This document shows, piece by piece, positions 4,382-52,500 of a DNA stretch of 64,000 nt (position 1 is its first letter; each line of letters starts with the position of its first letter). The notes under the pieces are model-generated. The model saw only the letters and a list, made by a program, of their open reading frames with translations, made no database searches and was not told the DNA's origin. The DNA is from Marsupella aquatica. Taxonomy: Eukaryota; Plantae; Marchantiophyta. The stretch lies in NCBI GenBank assembly GCA_973895155.1, contig OZ316896.1:16120576-16184575 (forward strand), written 5' to 3'. The translations under genes were made by a program, and so were the position numbers.

Positions 4382-4500
4382 TGATGCGGTCATACCAGGG
4401 CTACTACACCAGATCCCATCAGAACTCTGCAGTTAAGCGCCTTTGGGCCGGAATGGTTCTGGGATGGGTGACCTCCCGGGAAGTCCCGGTGCCGCATCCA
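4382..4500 (+). rRNA. 5S rRNA: 5S rRNA, copy 6, loop-E variant (A74G, A77T), possibly non-functional
   Basis: GAATGGTTCTGG at 4451-4462, same two changes as copy 3. Confidence 0.9.
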
Positions 4501-27569: not shown

Positions 27570-27688
27570 TGATGCGGTCATACCAGGGCTACTACACCAG
27601 ATCCCATCAGAACTCTGCAGTTAAGCGCCTTTGGGCCGGAATAGTACTGGGATGGGTGACCTCCCGGGAAGTCCCGGTGCCGCATCCA
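27570..27688 (+). rRNA. 5S rRNA: 5S rRNA, copy 37 (last in array)
   Basis: Same sequence as copy 1. Confidence 0.97.
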
Positions 27689-27967
27689 ATCTTTTCCTTT
27701 TTTGTTTTGGACCTCCCTTGTTGCACACTTGAAGCTTCCAAGCTGTTCCTCTTGGTTCCATTGCTTGTGCCACCCCCTATTTATCAAACACTATTTTGCA
27801 CATACAATAAGAGACCCCCTATTTATCAAACACTATTTTGCACATACAATAAGAGAATTGGTTGTGCCAACCCCTACCTAGAAAACTTTTGATTTTGCAG
27901 ATACAATAAGCAAAAATTTAAATTTTTAGGGGCTCCGCCCCAAAATCCAACACAACACATCAATTCT

Positions 27968-28178
27968 AAAAATGTCTCCCATGGGCCGCCCCGCCGCCCA
28001 CCGCTGGCCAATGGGCACTATTTCCGTGTGCGCCCTTGCTTGGAGTCTCTGTCCCTGCGGGGAAGCCGTGAGGACGCGATTGGGGCGGTCACCCATCCTG
28101 TGGGTGAGTCCTGGTCTGGGTGCTTAACGATGGAGTTTGTATGTGGACTGTGGTGGGCAGATTACTTATCCGGTTCTG
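27968..28178 (-). ncRNA. Candidate 5S-promoter-derived Pol III RNA (SINE3/Cassandra-like head, or a divergent inverted 5S pseudogene)
   Basis: Minus strand AACTC-N4-GTTAAGC-N23-GGATGGGTGACCGCCC matches 5S boxes A and C at identical spacing; first T5 run at 27972-27968; several stems; ends are inferred. Confidence 0.55.
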
Positions 28179-28688
28179 TTTAAATTTGTTGGGTGTTGTT
28201 ATATGTAAAAGTTGGTATATGTGGAGGATGTACATTCCGATGATAGGGCCTTTTCCTTGTGTGACGGTTAACGGGAGATTCTTTAAGGGGTTTGGTTGTC
28301 AGGATGAATCGGTGTGGAATGTGTGTGTGAGCTTATTTGTTTGGAGTTTTACTTGAGGGTTTTCTTTGAATGTGGGAGTTGTTTTGAAGTGAATGTGTTT
28401 TCCTATTCTGCTAGGATTTACACTTTAAACGTTGCCCATTGTGCATTTGAATCTGGATGGAGTAGGGTTATCCGGTCTGCCCGAGCTGGTTTCTTTCACG
28501 ACCTCTGTTTGTGTCGTTTGTTAGATTGGATCCTCAGAGTGTTCTCCGTCATTTTCCCGACTTTGCTAGTATGGCCTTATTCAGTGAATTTCATTTGTGG
28601 CTTCCTTCTTCGGAACCCTGTGTTGTGTATACTACTTTTAAGAATAGTGGTAGAATTAGGCTGAAAGGAAACTTGATGGGAGACAGAC

Positions 28689-29658
28689 AATAGTAGTCTC
28701 TATGATGAGTTTCGCATTGACCATTTCCGAGGACTCGCAGGATACTGGGCTATGAAAGCAGGTGAAGAAACGGGTCTAAATGGAACTTGGAAGGTTGGTC
28801 CAAGACAAGCCTTCTTTGACGCCGTCCAGAAGGCTGTTGGGAAGATAGACATCATTGCAGAGGATTTGGGTGTCATAACATCAGATGTTGTGGAATTGAG
28901 GAAGGCCATTAAAGCTCCTGGGATGGCGGTACTTCAATTTGCGTTTGGAAGTGATCCACAAAATCCACATCTGCCACACAACCATGAGATTGAACAAGTT
29001 GTATATCCGGGGACCCATGACAATGATACGGTGCGAGGCTGGTGGTTGAAGCTACCGGAGGATGAAAAGGAGACTGTGCGAGCATATCTTCGATTAAAGG
29101 GTACTGAGCAAGACATTTCATGGGATTTTATAAGGGCAACTTTTAGTTCAGTGGCACGCACAGCCATTATTCCCATGCAGGATGTACTGAGTCTGGACAA
29201 CTCTGCTCGAATGAACACCCCAGCCGTGCAGGCTGGCAATTGGGGTTGGAGAGTGGGCGAATCTGGTGTGTTTACAAAGCTTGACAAAGAAAGAGATCAA
29301 TTGCGAGCTTTGCTTAAGTAGTACAATCGGATGCCACGGAGGACTTACTGCCCTATATAGACCTGTGGTGCAAAATGAGTCGTTAATAATAGTTTCTGAC
29401 CACAAGGCTAAGGAAAATTTTGATTGATTTGTTCTGGAGTTCAATTCTTCTGAAGAAGGGCATGACTTTCACCAATGAAGATGTACACGGCTCCGAATTG
29501 ACTTCAGCTAGTGACTTCCAGAGCTTGTAGAGAAATTTTGAAATGTATACAGATTTATTTCACTGCTCATTAAGAGAGGCAATAATGTACTGTCCATGGT
29601 AGTCAAATGAAAAAAATAAAAATAAAAATAAAAATAAAATAAAAAATAGTAGTCTCTA
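28689..29658 (+). pseudogene. DPE1: 5'-truncated processed pseudogene of 4-alpha-glucanotransferase (disproportionating enzyme, GH77); coding remnant ~28698-29321
   Basis: LYDEFRIDHFRG, IIAEDLG, YPGTHDNDT, IIPMQDVL, RMNTP and NWGWR motifs with no introns; in-frame TGA at 28674 and no N-terminal half; (AAAAAT)n tail 29610-29646; AATAGTAGTCTCTA at 28689-28702 and 29645-29658. Confidence 0.9.
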
Positions 29659-31770
29659 GTAGCACTTGAAAAAGGTGGTGCTAAATGTGGAAGTGAAATC
29701 CAGAAAATTGTTAACATGTGCCATTTGGATTTGTTACCAGGAGTGAAGTTATGTGTTTGAAAACTTGACGAAACAACAGCAGTAGCATGTGTACTATGAT
29801 TCCTTTGCGTTTGCTTGCATTGCGCTGTACACCGAGCTAATGAAAGACCCGTGGAAGGCTTTATTCTTCAGGCGCTTGGACTCTGATTTTGTTTGGATGT
29901 AATTTCACGGAACAGCACCGATGATACTGTGTTGCATTTTGACAGCAGGACTTGTCAGTGGTGGGTAGCATGGCTTTTTCTTGTGCTCCTGTGTTTCATG
30001 CTAATCGCGTGGACATCTTTTGAAGTTTTTCCACATGGTTATGAATATTGGAAACTTATATTTTCGTTTCGTAAAATATGTGTGGTCAAGTTGCAGAAGG
30101 GGCGCGGACTCTGCGGTCAGTTTTTGGAAAAAAATTCAGTTTCACATTGCAGTGCCTTTTTAAGAACATCTCTTGCAGTAGAAGCTTTGTGTACGATAGC
30201 ACAATTTGATCTTCTCTGCACTTTCAGGTTATTGTGTACGATTGCCAGAATACCCAGTGGCATATATGTCAGGTCTTTTAATCTTGGACAAGTGTTCATA
30301 CATTATTAGTGAGTTTGTTTGTGCTACTGTGGCTTTCGCTGCGCTCTCTGCATGCATCGCCATATCCGAGACAAGTTTACTAAGGAATATGTTGTCGTTC
30401 TGTTGGATGTTGACTTTTGCAGGTCTGTGAATTTGAAGTTCATCCCTGAACAAATATTTGTATCTAAACAGGTTTGTGATGATGTCTCTGTTGATGCATC
30501 TGGGACTACTTTTCCTGTTTGCTAAATACAAGTGGTGCAAGTTAGTAATGTGTTTCTCAGTGTTCAATCAATTATTCGTCTCTCATAATCAAACTCTAAT
30601 ATTCATGCCAATGAAGTCATGGACGGACTTTATTCTTTCGTAAGTGGAATCTTACAGAGGGTTCTTCTTTAAAACACGATGGGGGGACTATTCAAAACAT
30701 TGGTTTTTTTCTTTTGAATTTCCTTTCCATTCGGTGGTTCCACTCCTGCATAGTGTTCTTAAAGGTAGCTATAATAGTTATCTTTTGTTGTCCACCAGTG
30801 CAATGATATTTCCCTGCGGAGTTTTCCCCTCCCTTCTTGCACCTATTGCCCTGTATTGCTTTTTTGGATGGGATATATTTAAGTTTTTTTGCCCTTACAT
30901 TACTACTCAAAACAGTTTATATATTTTATGTTTTTAAATGGATGTCCACTATTTGAGATTTTGAAGGGTACTTTCCAATTATGACGTCCATCTCATAGCT
31001 GAAGTACAATCAGAATCAAATTAAATTTCAAGTCAAGCATCGAAGGAATCACATGCAAATTGACAATCAATATTCTCCAATCCAGGCATGACCTTCAAAG
31101 TATTCAGGAGTTCGTTTTATAAGGTAATTTGGGAGAAAACTAATGGACAGGGGTAACAGTGCATTGAGCGGGAAGACTTTGTTCTCTGGTAAATCAGGTG
31201 TGGCTATTAAAGGCTTTGACGGTCTTTAATTCAATGCCATTCAACATCCAATTCCTCAGGTCACTTCGCTACATATATCGTACAGTACATTCAATTGGAA
31301 AAACACATCCATTTCTTGAAGTACTCTAGTTAAATGTTAAACTGTTGACTTCTGTAGAAAGTGTTCACTGAACTTGAAGTGCGCACTGTGCAACTTTTAT
31401 TCAGAAGTGCAGTGATGCTCCAGTCTGCTTGAGAAGATCTTGATAGTCATCACTGCATGAACATTCAACTTCATTAACACATAGAGGATAGTAAGTACGA
31501 GGATACAATCAACCAATCAGTCTTGCTTGTAAACCTTCACGGCATCTGAACCAACAACGTCCTAGATCAACACCTTAATTAATTGGTCAGTTTGGTGAAA
31601 ATGTTTAGGGCCATTTCGCAGAGAATTGAACTGTGTGTTTTGTTCAGTCGAGAGTAGTTCATTGGCGGGTGTACAAGCAGATTCTCAGTAGAGTTCTTAC
31701 AGTGCATCGGCATCAAGAACTACTCTTGACACAGAAAAGAATTTACGCTGCCGTAATGCGCTATTTCGCG

Positions 31771-31938
31771 TTACCTCCTGCATCTCAACTCAAACTAGCA
31801 ACGACTTGCGATAGCATTTGCTTTCATTGGAGCTCAAGACTTGTAAAACTGTCCTTACCTCCTGCATCTCAACTCAAACTAGCAACGACTTGCGATAGCC
31901 TTTGCTTTCATTGGAGCTCAAGACTTGTAAAACTGTCC
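31771..31938. repeat. Tandem duplication, 2 x 84 bp
   Basis: TTACCTCCTGCATCTC...GTAAAACTGTCC twice, one mismatch seen. Confidence 0.95.
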
Positions 31939-32001
31939 TCTTATGAAAAGTCTGCAACGCGAAACGCGCCACCATATCATTTCCTACATAGACACAAAGT
32001 G

Positions 32002-32206
32002 AAGTCAGTAGTGATCTCTGGACATCCTCGATCCAGTTCCAAAGCCGGCCAGGGCTTAGTTTAGACCCATCGAGAAACAAAAAATTCACAAACAAAGTCA
32101 GTAGTGACCTCTGGACATCCTCGATCCAGTCCAAAGCCGGCCGGCGCTCAATTTCAACCCGCCGAGAAACAAAAAACTCACAAACAAAGTCAGTAGTGAC
32201 CTCTGG
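32002..32206. repeat. Tandem repeat, ~2.2 x 92-93 bp
   Basis: AAGTCAGTAGTGA(T/C)CTCTGG at 32002, 32095 and 32187. Confidence 0.9.
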
Positions 32207-32380
32207 TCATCGTTGTTATTTTGAGCAGGATCTGAACATCGATTGTGGATGTAAGCCCGATCAGAACGCTGTTCAACTTTAAAGACTTCTGTTAACCTTT
32301 CGAGGCAAAAGCAGACTGATTATAACTGCCATCTACTTGGAGACAGTGTAAAATTCTCACACTTAGAGAACCTACACTCT

Positions 32381-35155
32381 TTTTTTTCCAAACAGGAAAA
32401 GGGGACGAGCGCCACCCGGGGAAGGAGTAAACTCACAGCCGGCCCCAACCACCAAACCACCGCCCAGATCAGGCCATGGAATTTTGAATCACCAATTGGC
32501 AGCCCTCTCAAATTCCAGAGGCCGGTTCTCCTACTCTTCCTATGTCTATACTGCCTTTGCTTGTAGCCTAACCAAGCAGAGTTATCATCCGTAACGTGCT
32601 GCTGCACCCTAGACCCACACTCATCCTGATGCTGAAACACGAAGGTGTAGTTCCTCATATTTCTATAGTCTTCAATTCCCTGCAGCTGCCCATGCATGGT
32701 GGCCCCGTGACCCTTCCATCGTCATCATGGTTGGCGCTACAAGAGATAGGACTGTCAGTCTGCTCCCAAGGAAGCAGCACCACCTTCAGTTGTTCAAGCG
32801 CAGCGTGCAACTGATGATTGCCAGGAATTGTACGTCCAGCTGAATTGTACGTCCAGGATGGATTTTACGTGGGATTCTGTTTGTCTGAGAGCCACCCATC
32901 AGGGGAGTCTCCCAAGAAAGTGTGAGTAGGTGGCAGGGTTTTTCTCCTTCCAGATGTTGGAGCACATTTATATAAACCCTAAACCCTAAGCACATTTACA
33001 TCAGAAAAGTCAGAGTCCCGGTTTCTGCTTGTGTTTGAGGATAGCCCTTTCCCCTCTTTTACTCCCCTTCATTGGGTTCATTTGCTTTGGGATTCCCAGT
33101 TTGGCCTTCTTTTTTCCCTTGGGCAGTGTGATATATGATAGCACCTGTGATAGATGGCCTCATACAGAAGAAGGGTAGGGTGACGAGAGGGCAGGGAGCC
33201 TTGCTCAAGCTGCTACACCTCTCTCCATGTAGCCGTCACTTCACTAGAACTTTATTACAACTAAAACATAGGTGTTCAGTATGCTCAAAGCAAGATTTGG
33301 ACTTCACTAGAACTTTATTATAACTAAAAAATAGGTGTTCGGTTTGCTAAAAGCAACAATTGCACCGTGACTAAATCCTGTCACATTGCCCCTACCATTA
33401 GTGCAGAAACTATGACTTAGTAGTTGCCACAAAAAGAACCTAGTCTCACCTTAGGCAACTACCAGCCTCCCCATAGTTTCTTCCACAGTTGGTTCCAGCC
33501 CTTAGGGCTTTGCTCAATTGCCCCCATCTTCTGTTTAGCTTGGTACCATCTTTACCCAATGGCAAGGTGCAGTTAACCTACAATCTATTGAGAAATTTCC
33601 CCTTATTCCGTCCTTTCCAATCTCATGCCACCCTTCACACTCCTGAACTTGACAGTCATTGAGATCCTAAAATTGCTTCAGCTAGAATCTGGTAAATTCC
33701 AGCCTTGTTTGTATGTTGCTCCTAACCCATTGACGAATGTCCTCCTCTGCGAGCCAGCCATCCCGTGTAGACCACAGGTTAGTGATCTTTGTAATTCGAG
33801 GGTTTGCCATGAACCGTCTCAGTGCCATCCCCTCTTGGTCATCCACCTAATTGTTCCTAGAGTAAAGTAGTACAGTCTGTTCAATGGTGAGGTTAGAAGG
33901 GAGGTTACCCATGAGCTTACAGATTCCGAAGTTGAATCTCAGGCACTGGCTCTTATTCGACCAACCCCTCAATAGGCCTCCCAGGGTGGGGGATCCTTTA
34001 ATGACCAGCTTGTCGCTAAGTAGCAACACCTCAGTTGGAGACCACCAATGTATTTCTTTTTTCCAGGTCCCGCCCTCAGTCCCTTTTTGATGAGTTCTTG
34101 TGCCATCTTCACCCACTCACAATTCTATCCAATGATCCAATGTGTCTCATCTTCAGCGATTGTGCTTGCTTACCAACGGGAAGAATCCCCAGACCACCAA
34201 CTCCTTTTGGGGCAGCAGTCCTGCCAAGCAATTAAAGCTTGTTTGTGGCCCTTAGAGGGCAAATGTCCCCTTAGGAACCTTCTCATAACTTCTCAAGCTC
34301 CAGGTATCCGGTCTGGTGGAGCTCAAGCAACAGTAAATGGTAGGTGGGAATGGCTCGCAGAACATGTTTCAGCAGGATGGCCCTCCCTGTCACAGCGAGG
34401 CTCCTCTTAGACCAGTGGCATAGCTGCTTTCTCAGTAGTACCAACTAGACAGCCAGCTTCGTGAGAAGGATGAACCTTATATATATGATTGGCCGGGCAT
34501 CCCGGATAATTGGAAATCTGTCTTGCTTCCACAATACGACATCTATCCGGCCTCCTGCATCCACCTAGGGTAATCCCTGTCCTCCAAAAAGAGAGGACTG
34601 ATCTTGCCCGTCTTCCAGATTCTTCTTGATGAGGGCCATCAGAAGTTGGGTTGTAAAGAGGGAAAATGAGAGAAGAGAGAGGGCAGCCTTGTTTCACCCC
34701 CTACCCAATCGAATGGGCTGCGTGAATCTTTTGTTGATGTGCACTTTTATATTAGTGTATGTCTCCCACCAGCCTTATGACCAGGGTAATCACTTAGTTT
34801 GTTGTCAAAGTCCATTGCTTTCAAGACTGCCCATAGAAACGAGTGTGCTATATATCCAATAATATGCTTTTGTGAATACCAACTTCAAAAAAATGAGTTG
34901 TTCCTTGTTAAGTTTTGCTGGCTCTTGTCCCAACTTGAATGTCATCAAGTTGTCCAGTACTTATCTCCTTTCCAGAAATGTAATTTTCTGGTGGTCTACC
35001 TTCTTAATACGATTGGCTAAAATCCTACCAATTAACTTCTCAGTCAGTGTAAGCAGTCAATGTAAGTCAGTCTGTGGTCGCCAATTACTGAGGTCCGGGC
35101 TGAGGTCCAGTACCTCCTGATTCTTTGGTACCAACTTCATTACTCCGGCCAATTT
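32381..35155 (-). mobile_element. Decayed, 5'-truncated L1-type LINE (RT plus C-terminal zinc-binding region, many stops and frameshifts)
   Basis: Minus-strand GVMKLVPK..NWRP, KLIGRILANRIK, KLGQE..FLKLVFTKAY, KQGCPLSSLIF, TEHLFF; T8 at 32380-32387; candidate TSD GAG(A/T)ACCTACACT at 32366 and 35156. Confidence 0.8.
33238..33355. repeat. Degenerate tandem duplication, ~63-bp period, inside the LINE
   Basis: ACTTCACTAGAACTTTATTA(C/T)AACTAAAA at 33238 and 33301. Confidence 0.9.
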
Positions 35156-38100
35156 GAGTACCTACACTATGTTCTCCACTAGCAAAATTGATTTACAAAG
35201 GGGTTTCATTGGTAAATTTTGTTGTTGGGTAAAGTCTTTTATGGTTGCTGGCATGGCAAGTATATGTATCCCACTGTCAAAGAACAAAAAGAATATAACC
35301 TGGAGATAGGATCAAAAACCAAGGCAAGAGATCCAAAGGGGAGAAAACCCAGAAAGACTAAGGGTGAGAAAACCTAAAACTGAGTGTTTGATGGTTGCAG
35401 CAAGTTTAGAGAGATGTTGTCGATGTGGCTTGAGGGCAGGCAACTGAAGGGAAAGTTGGGTACAAATTGAGTATAGGTGCCCGGTGGTTGATCCGGGAAG
35501 GGTGAAGGTGGTCTGCCCTGCCCTGCCCCGCACCACCCCGCCCCCATACTCTGCCTCCCATGCTTTCTTCCTTGCCCACCCACCCACATTCCAACACAAC
35601 TCAAGTGCCTGGCAAGGAGGCCAAGAAGGGGACAAAGATGTGAGGACAAAGTCCAATGGTGGATGGACGGAGGGGGAACAAACGGGAGGAAGAAGGGAGA
35701 AGGGCAAGGGAGAGGAAGGGGGAGGTGGAGTGGGGTGGAAGATTTGAAAGGGGTGAAAAATAAAAATTGCACGGGACAAGCAACAACAAGGTTAGAGGAG
35801 GTGAGAACAGAAATTTTAAAAACCAAAACTAAATGACTTCTCTGCCCAGGCGTTAGAGTTTTTGATGTCGCTTTGAAATCCTATTCATCCTGACCCAGTC
35901 ACAAGACCCCAACCTAGGGTCTCCTCCCCCACCCAACCATCTTCACACATCCCTCTCTTTGAAATCCTTGATGTGCTCTTGAGCGTGAAGAATGTCTGCG
36001 CTCACACTGTCTCTTTAGAATCCTAGATGTGGTCTTGGGGTTCAAAAATTTCTATTCATACTTTGCAGGTACAAGAGTTGTCATGACTTTTTCCGAAGTA
36101 CGAGAAAGTCATGACTGGTGCCATCTCTTTAGAATCTGGGATGTGCTCTCTGCCACGGGTTTCCAATATTTGCATCATATGTTGACCTATATGCTTGAAC
36201 AAAATGCCTCCAGGATGGACCAGCACAACCAGATGGAGTGCAAAATAAACTTTTTTGTAATCAGATAGCACTCCTTCATAAAACAATCCATAATTTTGAT
36301 GTGAATTAGGCGAGTCAACACAACTTACCAAAGGAATCAGCACTGTTTAGGTTAGATTGATATATTAGGATATGGGGTCACATCGTCCCCCACCCTAATC
36401 AGGGTTTTGTAAAGTATATAAACTTACTCCCCTTTTAGTTTAGTTGAGGGAGACTTACGGGTTAATCCCAGTTGCACAGTAAAGAATGGTGAGTTAGTTG
36501 CGATCTCCCCTTCAAGTGTTTATGAGTAGGTTGAATACATAATGTACAGTCAGTGAGTGAGTGAAGAGTCGACCAAGACTAGAGTTCACAACCCTTAGGG
36601 AATTCCTTCCCTTGCTGATTTGGTCCGGGTAAGGGTTAGCATGGGAGGTTTTTCATTTTTGAGTGAGATTGATTCCTGATTAAGTAATTGGAGTAAGTGT
36701 TGAAGAAGCTAAGGTCCAAGGACAACAGGAGAGGTATATGCTTGATGACACCCTTGGCAAAATGTTTTTACATGATAGGAACCTATGAAACTTGTCCTAC
36801 CAAATAGGACCTCTCTGACACATTTCTGTTAGAAGTTCTTGTAGTAGACAGTCCTTTTGCATGATATTGTGATCAACAACAAATACTGTGAAGTTTGTGG
36901 CCAAACCTTGGACGGTTGAACAATGCGGCTTAGAACATTCCATAGAATAGTGGCAGCTGCCGCCCAAACTGCAATAACTTAAGTGAAGACAAATGTCATA
37001 ATTTTTACCATAATTATTGCAGTTTTCATTAGGTTCACTTACACAAGTTTTTGCATGGGATTTTGACAATGTTTTTGTCATATTTTGATGTGCAATTGTC
37101 ACTCCATGCATACCAGAAGAGAGGAGGAGACATGCATATGCAATTGCAAAGGGTAGGAGCCTGAGATTTACCGCACTTGTGAGGAAGACAACTCTAGGCT
37201 CAGGTAACTGGTTTTAGTGGAGAAAATTGCAAGTCCTTAGGTCGTTTTCTGAAGTTGAGATCGGGCAGGCTACAGTGTCAGTTCAATGCAATGGGTGCAC
37301 AGTGGACGGCTCCTAATAGAGCCGATGGGCATAGGATACGTGAATGTTGAATTGGTCAGATTAGATGAGTCTGGCCTTCAAGTATTCAAATGCAGCTGTG
37401 AATTCTTTTGCAGGAATAAGCACTTGACATAGGTGACAATGGGTACAAGTCAATTAGGATTTGTCGTATGATCACTTGTTGCAGACTAGGCAGAGGCTAG
37501 GAGGAGGCTAGCAAACATGAGTAATTGTAGTTTTGAAAATTTTAAAGGCTGCAATGTTGTTGTACTCCACAATTAGGATTTGGGAACCGGGTCGGGAATG
37601 TTGGAAATTTTGGAAATCTGCCATCCTCAAGTGTATAAAGGTCTATGTGTGTGTTACAATGTGCATTCAATAGTTTTACCTTGGCAAATCCTTGCATGCA
37701 TGGAGTTGTATTTCATTTGTGTTTGCTGGGCAGGCTATCAACTATATTCCATTTCTATTGCCAAGGTTCTACCATGGTTTAGCAGCAAGTTGTGATAAGG
37801 TCTACCGTTGGCCCTACGTACGTCAATAGGGTCTGCTATGGCATGGTTGCTTCCAACCATCCAAGTGTTGAACAGAAGACATTAACCATATTGTTTTCAC
37901 TTAAGTTTTCACAGTTCAAGTGGCAGTGGCAACTATTCCTCAAAATTCCTGAACCGTGTAGTTTGACAGTCCAGTTCATGCTGTCTTCCACTAGCCAAAC
38001 CTAAATTTCGCAACTGAAGGCCGGGACTGAAGGATGAACTGATGAACCTCAACTCCTTTTAGTATGCCCTTGCTCCACATTTTTAGTGTTTCCAAGCAAC

Positions 38101-41100
38101 TAAGGTGAACTAAGGTGGCCGACTACACAGTTTGGTTCCACACAAGAACTGACTGTATGGCTCATTAAGAGGGGTCCAAATTGGTAAGAAAAGTTTTGTA
38201 GGGTCCCATCAGGTAAAAAGGTTCTGCCATGGGTCCTATCAAGCATATACACCTTGACGAAGAGAGGGCAGATGAGAGAAAGATCAGGCAGAGCACCAAT
38301 CCTGGATCACCCTTTTCCGAACATCGGGACACCCAGGAGTACTTTCCGTCCCAGGGTCTTTGTGCATCAAGGACTCAGCTGTTGTGTTGTCTGGAGGAGT
38401 ATTAGTCCAGGCTAGTGCCAACCTAAGTACTACAGGCACAACCGGGGATTACGATCAAGCTTGGCCTCCCCAAGAGGTGTGATTGGGTATAAGTGTTTGT
38501 TTGGTTTACAGGCTTTGAATGATTTTGCAGACAAAGGTTAGGCTATGCAAGTGATTAGACATTTGCTGTATCAAATTCCCTGTCTCCTGATTCAGAAGTC
38601 ATGGCATCAAATATTTATTCAGCTCCAACTTACAATGACACAAAAGTGTGACAGCAAACTAAGGGCCAATGAGAGGAATGGGGCAGAAATTCTGAATTGA
38701 AATGGGACTACTATAGTATCATCCTGGATCATTCAATAATTAAGTAATTATTTAAAAAAAATATTTCAAATATTTTGGGGTGTTTGTGAAACTTCTAAAG
38801 AACTTTATTGTAAAAAATTTAGAAATATGCTAGGGGTGGCAGTTTCCACTTTTGCTTTTGTCTCGGGGATGTGATCAGGGCCAGTCATTGGGGATAAAGT
38901 TCTGCTGTTCACTTTACAAAACATTGGGGGCACTTTCACCTAACCTGTTCCCAATCCTACATGGCATGGAGTGGGGCCCAATTTTATGTGGAGCACATTT
39001 TTGTCCCATATTTTAGACCACTTCCCTTGGAGGTTTCTTGTTCTGGCCCCTTGGTCCATTCCTATTTTGAGTCAATTGCATAAAAAGTGGACCCACAAGT
39101 CCCTCCATAAGATCTGTTGGTGTTAGAGCGAGAAGGACTAGCCAAAGAATACCGTGACATTTAGGTGAAGTGGGTCCCCAACCTCTGTTAGCAAATCACT
39201 CTAACACCCACTGGCCGCACTGAGCTTTAGAAGACCTTGGGGCCATAAAGGGATTCCAAAAGGCTTTCAGCCCCATGACACTATATTTACTGTGTAAAAT
39301 GGCCCTCCAGTTTGCTTTTGGTGAAAAAATATCACAAGTGCCACTAATGTCTTGTAAAGTACTCCTAAGCATCATCATGGTATAAACACAAACACAGACG
39401 TTCTACACTGATTACCATAATTAATCTCACACACAGTATTTGGGAACAAAGGTTTTTCAAAGCTGTCACCATAATTAATGTGTGTGAAACTATATAAGAA
39501 GTGAGACTAAATACATGTTATTCTAAATTAGAGTAAGTGAGATTATTTTTGGTCACACTCAAATAGTGTGTAATGAACACATATTATGTATATAGCTTAT
39601 GAAAAGTACAAATATTTCTAGTAGTAAGTTATATTTGCAATGGCATATAAAATTAAAAATGGATGTCAATTGAAAGTCAGATTTTATTCAAGTATGATGA
39701 AATGAAAACCAGGTTATAAATACAATCAAAATCAAATTAGAACCAATGACAATAGACTGAACTCTTTACTTGTATTAAATATTTATATTTTGTCAGATTT
39801 GTACTCACATCCTTATTAGTGTGTGTGATATTATTTATGCAGGGAGACTATATAAGGTATGATACTAATTAGGGTAAACAGTGTAGTTATGATATCCTTA
39901 AAATAATATAAAAAAGTGAAGATTCCAATTAAAAAAGATGAAAACAGGAATACTGGACTCAGGGGCTCGGACAGCTAGGCACAGTAGTCTTACAGTGCCT
40001 TTATGGCTTATCCGGGGGGTACTCTCCCCCAGTCCCCCGGAATAGTGATATTGCCTCAGTGGTCAGAGGTTCTTATCTGGGATTTCATGGATCCTCCGTC
40101 CCCATTTATTTTATAATCCTTCAATCGCCGTTCTTGCAGTGTGGCCACACTTTTGTGTGGATTTCGATCTGCTCCCCCATAACGGCCTATAAAGTCGACA
40201 GCCAGAAGCCTAGTTCCTGCAGCTGGAATTCGTGAGTGACGTTGTGTTTTCACATTTCTTTTGGATATTTCTTTGCCTCGAAAGATTTCAAGGAATTCTA
40301 TTGGATATCTCGAGATGAGGAGAAAGGTTTGTGTTCCACATTCATCTGGAAAGAAGAACGCCACTGTACGTGAACTGACAGGTTATGCCTCAGTGGTCAG
40401 AAATCGAAAGTCTTATCTGCCTCCGTCACCATTCTTCTGGTGCCACACTTCTGTGATCCTGTCCGGTTGGGCTTCTGCCTCCCTAACGGCTATAAAGTCC
40501 ATGTTGCGGCTGATGCTTGTCGCTTAACCCGAATAGGAGTTCTTGACTCTTTGCAGCTCCACACTTCCGACCATATCTACCTGTTGGTCAGCTATTTCGT
40601 AGCAGCAGCTAGTACTGAGATTAGAGTTCCACATTCATGGTAGAGATTTCGGTCCGAAGAGTAAGCGCTGTATTCCAACGGCTTAGTTCCTGACCAAGAT
40701 TCCTGGAGGTACGTAAATCGACGTGATTTGTGCTTGAATTCTACTCTCGTTCCTTTCATGGAGACGAAGAGGGAGCGAGCAGGGCTCAGCTTTGAACTTT
40801 TGCTTTGAAACAGTAGAAGCACAACCCGACAATGTGAATTGAATTGCACAATTTGGTGGAGAGTTGTTCGTGACTGGAGCAAGGTTATAATGAGTTTTTG
40901 TTTAATTCGTGCATGCTTCGAATAAGGCTTGATAGAGGTCTGGTGCAATGTTAACTGATGCTGAGCTGAGGCGACTCGGACTTCGCTGCGTAGGGCCATA
41001 GTCATGCAGTTGCTGACGAGTATGAGACATAGGAGACGGAACGAAAGTTCATCTAACTGTTACTTAGACGCGCAACTTGGCCATAGACAGTCTGCAATCG

Positions 41101-41295
41101 TTCAGTCCTCGTGAGCAGCATTGAACGCGTTTCTGTACTTGTGTATTCTGAATGCTTGGCCGTAAATTTCGTGCAGCTCGAAAAAGGAGCGGGTGATCGA
41201 GTCCGATCACAGAGAGTGGTGTCGACCAACGATCAGGGTGTGACCTCGCACCTTGACAATTTACTTAGTTGACGACACTTCACTTAGTTCGTGAA

Positions 41296-46500: not shown

Positions 46501-49500
46501 AAGTGAATTTCAATGTTAGGAGAGTGCGTGGATAACGTAAGGCGAGACATTGATGGAACTGTCAACCATTCGGGCAACCATTTGGAGGCTGTTGTCTTCT
46601 GTGCAATCTGAAACCAGCCCCAAGGCCCAGCAAGCCACTCGATCGACAACTGCCTCAGGTGCGACATTCGTACAATTACGCCCTTAGTGCTCTTCTGAGT
46701 AGGCATTGAAGTTGTTTTTTGGGTGCTACCTGGCCATTTGAGTTCTCTTGTGGTAGCTCCTTTGTTTGGGTAGATGTCAGTCTGAAGCCACTGTATTGCT
46801 GTATTAAGTACTGACTATGTCTCTTCCGCCCTACGTCGCTTCTGAGTTTATTAGGAAATTAAAGAAAACCAACGCTTATTCCCCTAAAGTGAATTTTGCT
46901 CTTTGTTTTCTTTGAAAATTTTATTTGTGGCTCTTCATAATCTTCAACGATTAATGAAGATAAGTTATAAGTTTTATTGAATATATGATTATGATTATCA
47001 GCCTCAGGCAAACAAGTTATATCACTCCAACAAGGGACGAAGGTTTGAATCCAATTTTGTTTGCTCTGGCATGAAAGAAAGTCTCGTTCATAAAGAGAAA
47101 CATTGCAGGTACAGTCTGCGCGCTTAGCACCAAGAACAGAGTCCAGGCATCTTCAACGCAACAAAGATGAGCTCAACTCAGCGAAGTAACCAATCAACCG
47201 GCGGGAACGAGAGAAAAATTCCAAGTTGAACCAACTAAGCAGAGGAAAGTAACGAACTGCAAGCGTAAATCCAATTGAGGGATTCCTTAATGTTGACGCA
47301 GAACACTTACAAGAAGCTGAACAGCACAGCCCTTACATCTAGGAACACGCAGTAGCGGAAGTCTTAGAAGCTGCACCTGCATTACCAATCCAAGTGGAGG
47401 AGTGCTCCACATGCGATGAATTTGAAGCTTAAACCGTTTGCGTGCATTATCTCTGTGAAGACGACATCTTCTTGTTCTTTTTGGATTTTAACAGGGAAAG
47501 AAAATCAATGAGTGAGCCAACATTTGGTTTCACCCGTCAGGCTTCAAATCAATGATCAATCAATTTGGGTTCACCCATCAGGTTTTGACAAGATTGCCAA
47601 CAAAAGCATCTAAACTCCCATCAAAACCGTTGGCTTTCACTAGCAATATAAATTCACAGGTGGTAAGAAGTCAAAACGGCAATGGCTTTAGTGAGGCCCA
47701 GTGCTCAGGTCAAGTGGCCTCAGGAAAGCCTCATTCTCCCCCATTCGCCTGTAGTTCTACCCTGTAAAGCAGTGGGTCGCCAGTATTCTACCTACACCCC
47801 TCACTGCCACTAGGGTTAGCATCTAATCAGTGTGAGTGTGAAACTAGACGTGTTACTAACAATAAGAGGGAATAGGGCCCCTCTATAGCGTAACAAAATG
47901 ACGTAAATTATATGGAGCATCCATTAACCTCCGAATAGAGCTCTGGTCTCGGAGGTATGGCAATCAGCAAGCTCACCCCACCTTGCTGGAATGGTCGGGG
48001 TCGGGGGTACAATGTCGAGGTCACATAGAGCTCTAGAAGAGCAATTGTTTTGCTTGAAATTTATTTGAGATTTTATAAATATGGACCTGTGCACATTCGC
48101 TTGCACGGATTTTTGTTATTTCAGTAAATTGTTTGCAGGACAGCCAAGTGATTGAATTCGTGTCCCGTTATTGTCTTCCACCAGATGTGAAAGGACAGAG
48201 GTTAGTGCTGCGCCCTGTGTGAAGGTGGTTGAAGTGACTAGTTGCCGTTCACCTCGAGGTTCCATTGGTATTGACATCTGAATACCATATTCCAAAACTC
48301 CAAACTCTTCTGTGTATGTCATGTAAGGCTTACAGTCTACATTTCAGTCCACCATTTGCAATTGAGAGCACCGGAGCCAATAAAAAGTCTTGAAGTCCGT
48401 CGCTTTTGTCTGCATTTTACACTTTTTTGAGAGGCTTGAGCGCAAAAGCTTTTCCAATGGCGAGGCCAGAGGTGATGTCCAGCAGAGCATCAGGGCAGCC
48501 AATTTTTCGTGGCAACAATATGCCAATCACCTCCCCAGAAAACAGTGTTCCATTCGCCATCATCGAATGCACTATGGGGGAGTATTAGCTATCAAGTACT
48601 AAACAAGAGTCAGAAAGTACTGTATAATTGACAGACAATACTCCATGACCAGACCTATGCCTGGCTGTGCAGTAAAGTAGTCGTCACCTTGGCAATGTTG
48701 AAAGGACAAGAAAAATATGGTCTGGTTCAGGGATAATCTGCTGATCAATGTGATTGTTTTGTCGTCCGACACAGAAGAGTCTGTAAAATATCGATGCCTC
48801 CACTTTGCAACATGTGGGTGAGGACAGCTCATCGAAGGCTAATATTACAATTGCTGTTCCAGCACAATGTCTCACAGAGGCAATGCAGAGTCACAAAATT
48901 TTCTTTTTAGTCACAAAATTGGATTTAAAAGACCATAATGTTATTGAACAAACCTTAGAATCAATAAAATGATATTATGCCTTGTCGCATGTGCAGTTGT
49001 CATTTTCAGTCAACTGAGACTCTCGAGTGCAGGGAGCTAGATCTCAATCTGGAGTAACCCTGTTAACACCAAAGTTATCTGGGCGATATAGGTTTTCCAT
49101 AACCCCAAACCCCGTTGGCGCATTGTTTGTTTGCATTAGTGTCAGCCCAATGAGGTTGCCCAAGTGGCTCTAAGCTACTGGGTTTGGTCCAAACTGTATT
49201 CGCATAACAAGCCAGGTAATGGTTGGAATGCTCTAACCTGTTCTTTTCATCACTCGTGAAGAAAAAAACAATTGTTTTAAATGCACGAATTTCTTTTATT
49301 TAAGTGACACTACTTTGTGAGTACACCTGACAATTTGCTTCCCCGGAATTGGTTGAGGAATACTAATTGCGGTGGACAAGGTGCCCTGGATTTGTCAGGG
49401 TTCGCTGGTCCTGTTGGGTGGTACCTGCTTTGGTCCGTATATTGTCTACCTTTCAGAATTTTCAGTTTCTGGTGAAGCAAAATTTTGGTTACACTCATGG

Positions 49501-52500
49501 ATTAGTGTGGCCTAAACAGAACTTTAAAACTTTAAATCACTTAAAACACTAAAAAAAAAACTTGCATAATGGAAATAGGATGGTGTACCAGGTACTGCAT
49601 GCAAATCCGTGGCCCTCTCATGCATGGAGTTTTGAAGATAAGCCCTAGTATTCCCCATATTATTATGAGTAACACTAATTCCCATTCACACTAATTAGAT
49701 GCTAACACTAGTAGCAATGAAGGGCGTAATTTCAACCTGGTCAAGTTTGTCAGTTGACTACAGGTGAGTTTGGGATCACCAGCTAGCCTTACCACTTGGA
49801 ACCTCATCTTGCCACCGGCACTCCCTTGGCAACGTAACAGAAAATGGCACCTGAGATATCACTGTGCCAAAAGACAAAACCAAACGGGAGTCATGGTCCC
49901 TAGGGCAAAGCAACCCCATAAAGTGATAGGAAAATGGCATCAAGAAGACCAAAGAGGTCCAACAACCCAAGGTGTCACCAACAACAACAAAGGAACAATA
50001 AATAAGGAACCAACTAACATTAACACAAGGAAGCCCAAAAGACAAACGTCCTACTGGGCAGGAACAAGGCTTAAGAGACAAAAAGGCTTAAAACAAAGGA
50101 AAAGGGGCTACAACTTTAATGATCTTGGTCAAAGCGATGGACTCTCCTTTGAAAAGTCAAAGTTGGATGGCTTCACTCATTCACCAGTCAAACTCTTGGT
50201 ACTTTAGAGGGTCAAAGGAATCAACCTCTAGAAAGTGAAGAGTGAATCCTTTTGGAATTTGGGGGTATTCAACTGCAGAATGAAACACGTGAATCCTTTT
50301 CGGTGGCATCTCCACATAGGATAGATTACTTGCAGTGAACGACATGAGAGCTATATTAAGTTTTTCCAGAAGCAAATTGAGTAAAATAAGACAGCATCCA
50401 ATCAATCAATGACTCGAACAAAAATCCCAGTTGAATGGATCATCCGTTTCTTTCCTTCTATGTGGAGTGAGATACGCATGGCAGTCAAATCCAAGTACCA
50501 GCAATTTTTTTAACTTTAATTCGTAATGAAGACGAAGAGAAAGAAGTACCATCAGTCCATCACCATCATGGAGGTGCACCCTACCTTTTCCGATATCCCT
50601 ATTCAAGGGGTTTAATGAGACTTGTGGCCAGTTGCAGGACGGTGGTCTAGGGTGAGACAAAAAAATACAAACAAATGATTTGGTGTTGCAGGGAGTTAAA
50701 ACGGCTCACATCATGGCCCTTCTATCAGAAAAAACTTACTGGGTCTTCAGGACTTGCCGAGGCAACTATAGTACACTGGCTATCAGAAATAGTGTGAAAA
50801 TATAATTAGTGTGACACCAAAATCAGAGTGACTCGCACAAAATTGTGTGAACATTTTTTTCCAACTCGAATCACACTAATTAAGTATGGGAAGTCACATT
50901 TTATTTTGTATTGAGAGTCAGCTTGAGTCTAAGTTACATGCCTCTATTCTCAGTGTGCAGTATTCAAGGCAAACACCAGCCTAAAGCCCTCCCACATTGT
51001 GCACTCTCAATGTTGCAGGGTTTGAGAAATTGTTGACGTTGCTCTTCATGTTTCTTCCCCTTTTTTCTGGCTTCTACTTCATAGCCTGCAGCAGCAAGCC
51101 TCCCAAAGCTCGCTGCCTCCCAAAACCCTGACCACCCCAACCAAGACTGCGACAGAAAGTTGGATGGGAGAAGAGAAGGGTGGGGGGGGGGGGGGGCGGG
51201 GCGGGGATTGCCCACTACCCAGACCCTCCCTGGCTTGGATCTCAAGGTTGAATATTACAGGTGGGATTTGTGTTCCATCAAAGCTGGCACAGCCCAGTAG
51301 GAGCATGGGGGACACAGGTCTTACCTTTGGATCGCCTGGCCGCTTATGAAACAAAACTGTACCCCAAGTGTTATAAATGTACACTGCCAAAGAACAAAAG
51401 GTGCCTCATGGAAAAGCAGGAGACCCAATAAAGATGGGGGTGGGGGGATAGTAAACCCAGGAAGACCATAAAACCAAAAGTGGAGTACATTAACAACACT
51501 TTGTCAAATAGAACATTTATCCACCAAATTTATTTATCAGGGTGCCAGAGGACACAAAGGCCAAACAGGGAGACAGGGCCCCAACGGCAAAGCAGCCCAA
51601 TAAAAGGGAGGGAAGAGGAAAAGGTAAGATTCATGAAAGGACAAGGGGTGGAGTTGGGCAGGGCGATTGAACAAGCATGACAGCAATGCTCGAGGCTCAT
51701 GCCTTTTGTCTTGAATTGAAGTACAGTATCCAAAGTGAGCATATCAATATCTGTGGTCCAAATTAACTCCCCCAGTTTGACTTGTCTGGGCAGAGTCAGA
51801 CTCAATGGTCTAAGATTCTCCTGGTCTTCATTCCCTATTAGAATTTCTTGCCGACATCCCACTCCAATTTTTCTCGACAATAAGGACATTCCTCTTCCAT
51901 TCCGTCCAAACTCTCCATTTGTGGCTTCGCAAGAGGATCCTCTTCAGTGTCCGCTTCTCCGAAGTCTAGTGAGTAATCCATTTGTTCCAAGCCGGAAAAT
52001 AATTTTACGAATCGAGAATGAAAGTGAGTCCATGAATTCCATACCAGTTTAGGAAGACTTTTTAGCGATACTCCTTTTCCAATTTTGTAGTGACAACCAC
52101 GGTGAGTTGTAAATTGTGAGGCAGTGTGCTGCCTTCTGGTTCCCTAAAGGCTGGGCGACACACCATGCCCACATGATTTACGGAAAGAATCCACAGAGCA
52201 AGGTTTTAGGAGGTGATTGCGGGGAGGCTCATTGGACATCAGTTGAAGGACATCACAAAACTGGCAATCCAGGTTAGAACCTGGACCGTTGACTTAGAAA
52301 CACATCAAAGAACATGTCCACGATTGACTACATATCTTCGCTTGGTTCTTACGCTTCGTAATCTACACTGCACCATCCCAGCTAGCTACAGTAGCTTACT
52401 CGACCCTCAGTCAGCCTGTATTGAACCTGCATAGGCTGCAGAAAGTGAAATTGGCAAAACTCCCACTCTGAACTTAAAATAGAAGGAAAAAAGTCCACGG

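Follow-up and report, generated by a model that had tools for sequence, protein, structure and literature searches.

An inverted pair of 5S promoter boxes at the edge of a 5S rDNA array in the liverwort Marsupella aquatica: a candidate type-1 Pol III promoter

Introduction

Transcription factor TFIIIA is described as binding most strongly to box C and the intermediate element, from where it recruits TFIIIC, TFIIIB, and Pol III, and for yeast and mammals a barrier role in chromatin is described for TFIIIC-bound sites and tRNA genes (PMC12409998). The 5S-promoter borrowers that we found in print are all retroelements, namely Cassandra, Ajax, and SINE3. Cassandra, a terminal-repeat element of the TRIMp3 type, is reported from ferns and angiosperms (10.1101/2023.07.14.548913, PMC10886601), and Ajax, a TRIMp3 of nemerteans, and SINE3, which occurs in animals, are reported to hold the promoter part of 5S only (PMC10886601, PMC10946416). 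According to one review, SINEs derived from 5S are not known from plants (PMC10946416). A 2019 paper reported that, in every bryophyte examined, the 5S genes are linked to 35S rDNA (PMC6739443). Our literature search, made mostly in open-access papers, returned no liverwort precedent for the locus described here, no non-transposon plant RNA with a 5S promoter, and no liverwort report of a separate 5S array.

Here we describe an element of M. aquatica that lies against such a separate array, faces into it, and keeps the two boxes of the 5S promoter. A previous sequence-only reading had presented it as a new structured Pol III RNA of about 205 nt, with a factor-bound boundary or an antisense source for the array as a side idea; it is this side idea that now ranks first among the readings that we consider for the element.

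Results

The 5S array and its surroundings

The window, i.e., the whole stretch of 64,000 nt that was analysed (contig OZ316896.1, positions 16,120,576 to 16,184,575 of the forward strand), carries a stand-alone 5S rDNA tandem array on its plus strand at 640 to 28012, composed of a 748-bp unit with 37 genes in the window (37 Rfam RF00001 matches and a phase check). The array begins before the window, contains no 35S sequence, and its 37 genes are nearly identical; 35S-linked 5S copies may exist elsewhere in the genome. The last gene is situated at 27570 to 27688 on the plus strand (Rfam), with a TATAA at -30. Two genes, at 2137-2255 and 4382-4500, carry the same pair of substitutions (gene positions 74 and 77) and have a lower Rfam score (99.1 vs. 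106.7 bits), and the units at 640 and 2885 measure 749 bp; the region looks like a duplicated three-unit block. All array genes start with T (TGATGC..., e.g., at 27570) and not with a purine, and the true 5S start may be one base downstream of the annotated start.

On the other side, the element is followed by a 5'-truncated, intronless retrocopy of a 4-alpha-glucanotransferase gene (DPE1-type; PF02446, E 4e-64) at 28703-29644 on the plus strand, which bears an A-rich tail and a 14-bp target-site duplication (28689-28702 and 29645-29658). This retrocopy is a lineage-specific neighbour and not part of the element. Contig loose ends at 28759, 28792, and 28941 resemble, by eye, intron ends of its parent gene, and its stop codon at 29319-29321 differs from the run contig in all four runs. 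Two proteins of the window had their best named match in Calypogeia fissa (69% and 84%), with a Marchantia match of 71% for the kinase, which places the host among the leafy liverworts. Inverted-repeat pairs in 36734-38250 and 47793-49728 (83 nt with a nested 48-nt pair, and 50 nt; 1.4-1.8 kb apart) both resemble decayed non-autonomous DNA transposons.

Promoter boxes and organization of the element

Compared with the last array gene, the minus strand just outside the array holds AACTC at 28137-28133 (5/5), the box A core GTTAAGC at 28128-28122 (7/7), and the box C core GGATGGGTGACC at 28098-28087 (12/12). The gap from box A to box C is 23 nt, as in the array 5S, so that the net spacing is the same, and 4 of the 23 gap bases match; a single mismatch to the array 5S adjoins box C. 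These counts reproduce those of the sequence-only reading, and the ATATAA at 28204-28199 and the first downstream T5 at 27972-27968 are likewise present as it had claimed. Outside the array, the two-box pattern occurs once in the window, against a chance expectation of about 1.6e-7 matches over both strands of the non-array sequence (72 kb). The match to the promoter is real rather than random.

Once the array spacer at 27968-28012 is removed, the element proper extends on the minus strand from 28013 to about 28203. It begins with a TATAA (28199-28203), whose distance is 32 nt to the predicted start and 75 nt to box A (30 nt and 80 nt in the array genes). The 5' body (28138-28171), counted from the predicted start GGATAA at 28171-28166, has no significant similarity to 5S positions 1-41. 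It is followed by the box A core with its AACTC (28122-28137) and by the box C block (28083-28112), the latter including a hairpin TCACCCA/TGGGTGA at 28107-28089. The 3' part (28013-28082) is unique to the window copy, alignable neither to 5S nor to the second copy described below, and contains a predicted hairpin between 28035-28030 and 28018-28013. We found no T run of its own that would end a short RNA from the element before the array T5 is reached. The segment 28013-28045 was also tried as a decayed 5S 3' end with terminator in array orientation, and this was rejected (p 0.74-0.95).

Outside the boxes, five anchored alignments placed the element at the level of shuffled sequence (p 0.17-0.65), with no significant residual 5S similarity in the 5' body, the inter-box part, the 3' part, or the upstream flank. 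An Rfam search of 27700-29000 at E up to 10 gave three matches of E 3-8, all lying off the element; the check that had been proposed thus placed no known family on it and, in contrast to the 119-nt body of the 5S rRNA gene (RF00001), returned no match to the 5S covariance model. Identity to the array 5S amounts to 19/19 in the boxes and 34/100 elsewhere in the element (Fisher p 2e-8). Since the boxes are complete while the remainder aligns no better than shuffles, decay was not uniform; even at 70% identity, uniform decay would leave 19/19 with a probability of 1e-3. Uniform decay against 5S, which the sequence-only reading had named as the mark of an ordinary pseudogene, is therefore rejected on the comparison with the array 5S, and promoter-only retention, which it had proposed, is borne out. 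The comparison indicates that, at some past time, only the promoter part of 5S was retained.

These figures bear directly on the possibility of a functionless inverted 5S pseudogene, in which the boxes would have survived by chance, by the reader's own selection, or through conversion patches from the array. The array edge does place conversion donors close by, most of the element has decayed, constraint relative to distant flank is not significant, and no 5S fold was found by Rfam. Nevertheless, uniform decay is improbable as calculated above, conversion would have had to strike just the 7- and 12-nt boxes, the mismatch beside box C indicates that the block was not freshly converted from the array, and a kept hairpin arm that is not of 5S origin would be left unexplained. 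We consider such a pseudogene quite unlikely.

The proposed 205-nt RNA

The sequence-only reading had joined 27968-28205 into one unit of about 205 nt, with four stems, two of them pseudoknotted. In fact, the 748-bp array repeat continues without a difference to 28012, and the plus-strand array spacer at 27968-28012, taken as the 3' end of the element, is identical to the copy 748 bp upstream and present 38 times in the window. The last 45 nt of the supposed unit are array spacer, so that the T5 (27972-27968, minus strand) and both pseudoknot-stem partners (27986-27992 and 27994-28002), which it supplies, belong to every array spacer. All four stems can be drawn, but both pseudoknot partners are spacer, and a stem of at least 9 pairs between element and spacer arose in 38% of 300 shuffles. 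Folding energy gave z values of 0.28 for the 205 nt, 0.16 for 28013-28172, and 0.21 for 28042-28171, with five sub-ranges spanning -0.86 to 0.58; the test has little power, given that the real 5S gene reached only -1.21. A 7-bp hairpin like TCACCCA/TGGGTGA is uncommon, appearing in 2.9% of 2000 shuffles.

In favour of a 205-nt transcript, Pol III starting from 28171 would first meet a T5 at 27972-27968, and read-through of such length may exist in this lineage. The structured RNA itself lacks support: 45 nt at its 3' end are spacer, the second copy ends differently and cannot be aligned beyond box C, and the 5' body differs at about twice the rate of the flank. A pseudoknotted RNA running from 28172 to 27968 as a designed unit is accordingly very improbable, and as a conserved structure it is largely refuted.

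A diverged second copy in public runs

Contigs of five public runs (X1 to X5) were compared with the window; two of these runs, X2 and X4, are not independent, as the assembly may have been built from them. The stretch is present in four of the five runs. A single contig spans 27983-28726 in X1 (744 nt) and 27990-28726 in X2 (737 nt), with zero differences in both; as these contigs are unbroken, there is no near-identical copy elsewhere in those runs. Their array side of the junction comprises 30 (X1) and 23 (X2) letters, where our bridging rule needs 31.

X1 also contains a second copy, known from difference tables and a 30-letter loose end. Its alignment covers 28083-28686, where it shows 93 substitutions plus 16 gap letters; the retrocopy site is empty (joint 28686-29669), and the copy continues past 29684. 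X3 holds both types, the second one only at 28533-28686 and beyond 29684; X5 holds the second type only (28218-28643), and X2 and X4 the window type only. The ratio of window type to second type differs between X1 and X3, contig depths not being taken as copy numbers. The second copy is probably an orthologue that a relative contributes to mixed samples; it may alternatively be a paralogue. The copy-number check suggested earlier thus yielded one diverged, colinear second copy in the contigs of the five runs and no dispersed copies, which goes against the SINE-like status that had been considered.

The distribution of changes along the second copy is uneven. The box C block (28083-28112) shows at most 2 substitutions in 30 nt and no gap, a count obtained by subtraction: of the 93 differences, 91 are assigned to positions away from the alignment ends, and none of the 16 gap letters falls in the block. 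The adjoining 28113-28196 is changed at 24 of 84 positions, compared with 59 of 439 in the flank (p 0.001). Consequently, the block stands out from the adjoining zone (Fisher p 0.02, or 0.004 if it holds 1 change) but not significantly from the distant flank (2/30 vs. 59/439, p 0.40, or 0.16 if 1 change). The second copy keeps 6/7 of the box A core, 4/5 of AACTC, and GGATAA unchanged. The 5' body differs at 10 of its 34 positions, i.e., 29% vs. 15% in the flank (p 0.008), and around the TATA (28197-28217) up to 8 of 21 positions differ, again by subtraction. Nothing aligns 3' of box C, where 70 nt are loose. The first 8 visible letters of the loose end equal, by eye, a 5S 3'-flank variant in X1 (loose end 27689), which suggests that the second copy also abuts an array, closer than the window copy does.

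Two further contig types were observed near the junction. At 28008, contigs of X1 and X3 depart from the spacer into other sequence (a loose end), which may reflect a different array variant or a further array junction, 4 nt away from that of the element. In X3, a contig of depth 13 runs from array spacer directly into 28445-28450, so that the whole element is skipped, with a side of only 25 letters; it is possibly a deletion haplotype, or an artefact.

The second copy also bears on a more modest RNA, namely a short structured transcript of about 115-130 nt that would span 28171 to about 28042, pair at its ends, include the box C hairpin, and be trimmed from a read-through product. In the fold of 28013-28171, the partner of the predicted start is 28043-28042, and pair probabilities reach 0.77-0.82 in a stem 28161-28155/28055-28048. 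First-last pairing of 28171-28042 occurred in 1.3% of 300 shuffles, although the end was chosen post hoc. The hairpin is kept in the second copy, and a 5-mer in its loose end would, by eye, restore the two changed pairs at 28161-28160. On the other hand, the whole-fold z is about 0, no Rfam family or own T run was found, the 5' body is the fast-changing part (29% vs. 15%, p 0.008), and the 3' parts cannot be aligned. This short RNA thus appears improbable.

Strand-biased differences near the predicted start

Active tRNA genes are reported to show raised divergence near the start and an excess of non-template C-to-T changes (PMC6130373). In 28113-28196, C/T differences on the minus (non-template) strand affect 8 of 42 sites; for the flank, as covered in X5, the count is 6 of 188 (p 0.0009), so that the excess is about six-fold, while opposite-strand differences are not raised (2/42 vs. 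15/238, p 1.0). The within-zone binomial gives p 0.11, or 0.023 with the subtracted positions. The test was devised after seeing the data and relies on 10 unpolarised transitions in an alignment of about 70% identity. The excess fits transcription-associated mutation and would serve as a lead, not as proof.

Comparison with 5S-derived retroelements

A dead 5S-promoter retroelement, either a solo LTR of Cassandra or Ajax type or a SINE3-like head, would explain part of these data. According to this explanation, the boxes were shaped while the family was active, insertion preceded the lineage split, and the 3' end was later cut by the array. The element shares with Cassandra the kept 5S boxes, the freedom of the sequence between and beside them to change, and a plant host (10.1101/2023.07.14.548913, PMC10886601), and kept boxes with a variable inter-box sequence are the reported Cassandra signature (10.1101/2023.07.14.548913). 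With Ajax (PMC10886601) and SINE3 (PMC10946416), it shares the retention of the promoter part only. Moreover, 19 unchanged box bases fit neutral decay of about 7% per lineage (0.925^19 = 0.23, hand calculation).

Other features differ. As described, the Cassandra 5S core of about 70 bp varies in short motifs (MotIE, MotC) only; our element has no such core, as just 4 of the 23 inter-box bases match. Cassandra has two LTRs, whereas the element is a single box pair outside the array, which may be a solo LTR; no second box pair or repeat of 28013-28703 occurs in the rest of the window. Cassandra also carries a methionine PBS and a PPT. As the sequence-only reading had observed, there is no LTR pair in the window and no PBS-like motif in 28013-36000 (four motifs), and no PPT was seen by eye. 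No transposon domain was detected in 3 longer frames and in 71 short frames of 28013-41200 lying clear of the retrocopy, a scan in which sub-cut-off IL28A and DUF2846 matches were dropped as noise. Of the two flanks that a target-site duplication would need, one is gone, spacer having taken the place of the array-side end at 28012.

Copy number also separates the element from these families. Cassandra is a dispersed multicopy family, and Ajax and SINE3 are described as multicopy animal retroelements, whereas the element is low-copy and lies against an array: a single other copy at 80% identity or more was found in the contigs of the five runs, colinear through the flank, in a comparison that could miss older or shorter copies. 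SINE3 further has a LINE-related or A-rich tail, a duplication, and many copies; the element has no A tail in 28082-28013, and its 3' ends differ between copies. Finally, a low-copy element is unlikely to land beside a 5S array by chance. A retroelement origin is therefore an unlikely account, yet one to be reckoned with.

In two metagenome scans, the exact 21-mer returned 0 loci and the two-box pattern 20 loci, none of them a homologue. Fifteen of the 20 carry Rfam 5S matches of other eukaryotes, one (L007) looks by eye like a decayed 5S, and one (L008) matches by chance, upstream of a bacterial gene. The other three (L003, L005, L020; match at about 1501) all come from a single other sample and represent a repeated element in which boxes A and C of 5S persist; this element has little further 5S similarity and no Rfam 5S match, is SINE3-like, and is unrelated to ours. 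In four loci (L002, L014, L015, L019), a eukaryote tandem repeat links 5S rRNA, a tRNA, and U1, U2, and U5 snRNA genes.

Discussion

Our preferred reading, which we hold tentatively and at somewhat less than even confidence, is that an inverted 5S copy was born at the array edge and kept as a type-1 Pol III promoter aimed into the array. It is based on two boxes spaced as in 5S, a TATAA at a distance that suits Pol III, a body whose similarity to 5S is at chance level, contact with the array, and the box C block that the second copy keeps. Judging from position and orientation, an inversion at the array edge would have created a backward 5S copy, which then would have escaped homogenisation and lost its rRNA body. 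Known type-1 promoter biochemistry predicts that TFIIIA on box C would recruit TFIIIC and TFIIIB. Pol III would then start near 28171 and read towards the array to the first T run on offer, here at 27972, and the 3' end of the RNA would be whatever array turnover leaves. The relevant output would be factor binding or convergent transcription at the border, acting as a chromatin barrier or as antisense read-in, rather than an RNA fold. Against this reading stand the box C block, which is not significantly better kept than distant flank (p 0.40), the single changes in both the box A core and AACTC, and the up to 8 of 21 positions changed around the TATA in the second copy. In addition, only two copies are compared, and the promoter of a mobile element that is now decaying would look similar.

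Two described systems come close to a promoter of this kind. Minor 5S genes and the 5S-210 read-through share with the element a 5S ancestry, a TATA about 28-32 nt upstream, and read-through to a T run (PMC5887818). The minor genes are reported to keep a 120-nt body with few changes in array orientation (PMC5887818), whereas the body of the element is at chance similarity and inverted. ETC sites and tRNA barriers, in turn, use Pol III promoter boxes as DNA elements with barrier or insulator activity (PMC12409998). The ETC sites described there, from yeast and mammals, consist of B-box (type 2) motifs, in contrast to the type-1 boxes needing TFIIIA found here; they serve as a model for a barrier role that the element may have.

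A stronger version of the preferred reading is that the host keeps the element as a TFIIIA-dependent "cap" of the array, conserved in related leafy liverworts, that sets a chromatin border or seeds antisense control, possibly acting through a short RNA with paired ends. We regard this version as unlikely. If true, the cap would represent a type-1 counterpart of ETC and tRNA barriers and a non-transposon 5S-promoter gene in plants. Such a low-copy, array-anchored case would show a host re-using the type-1 promoter and would open the bounding of 5S arrays to direct tests. If the element is a mere relic, it would still offer a clean example of what escapes homogenisation at the edge of an array.
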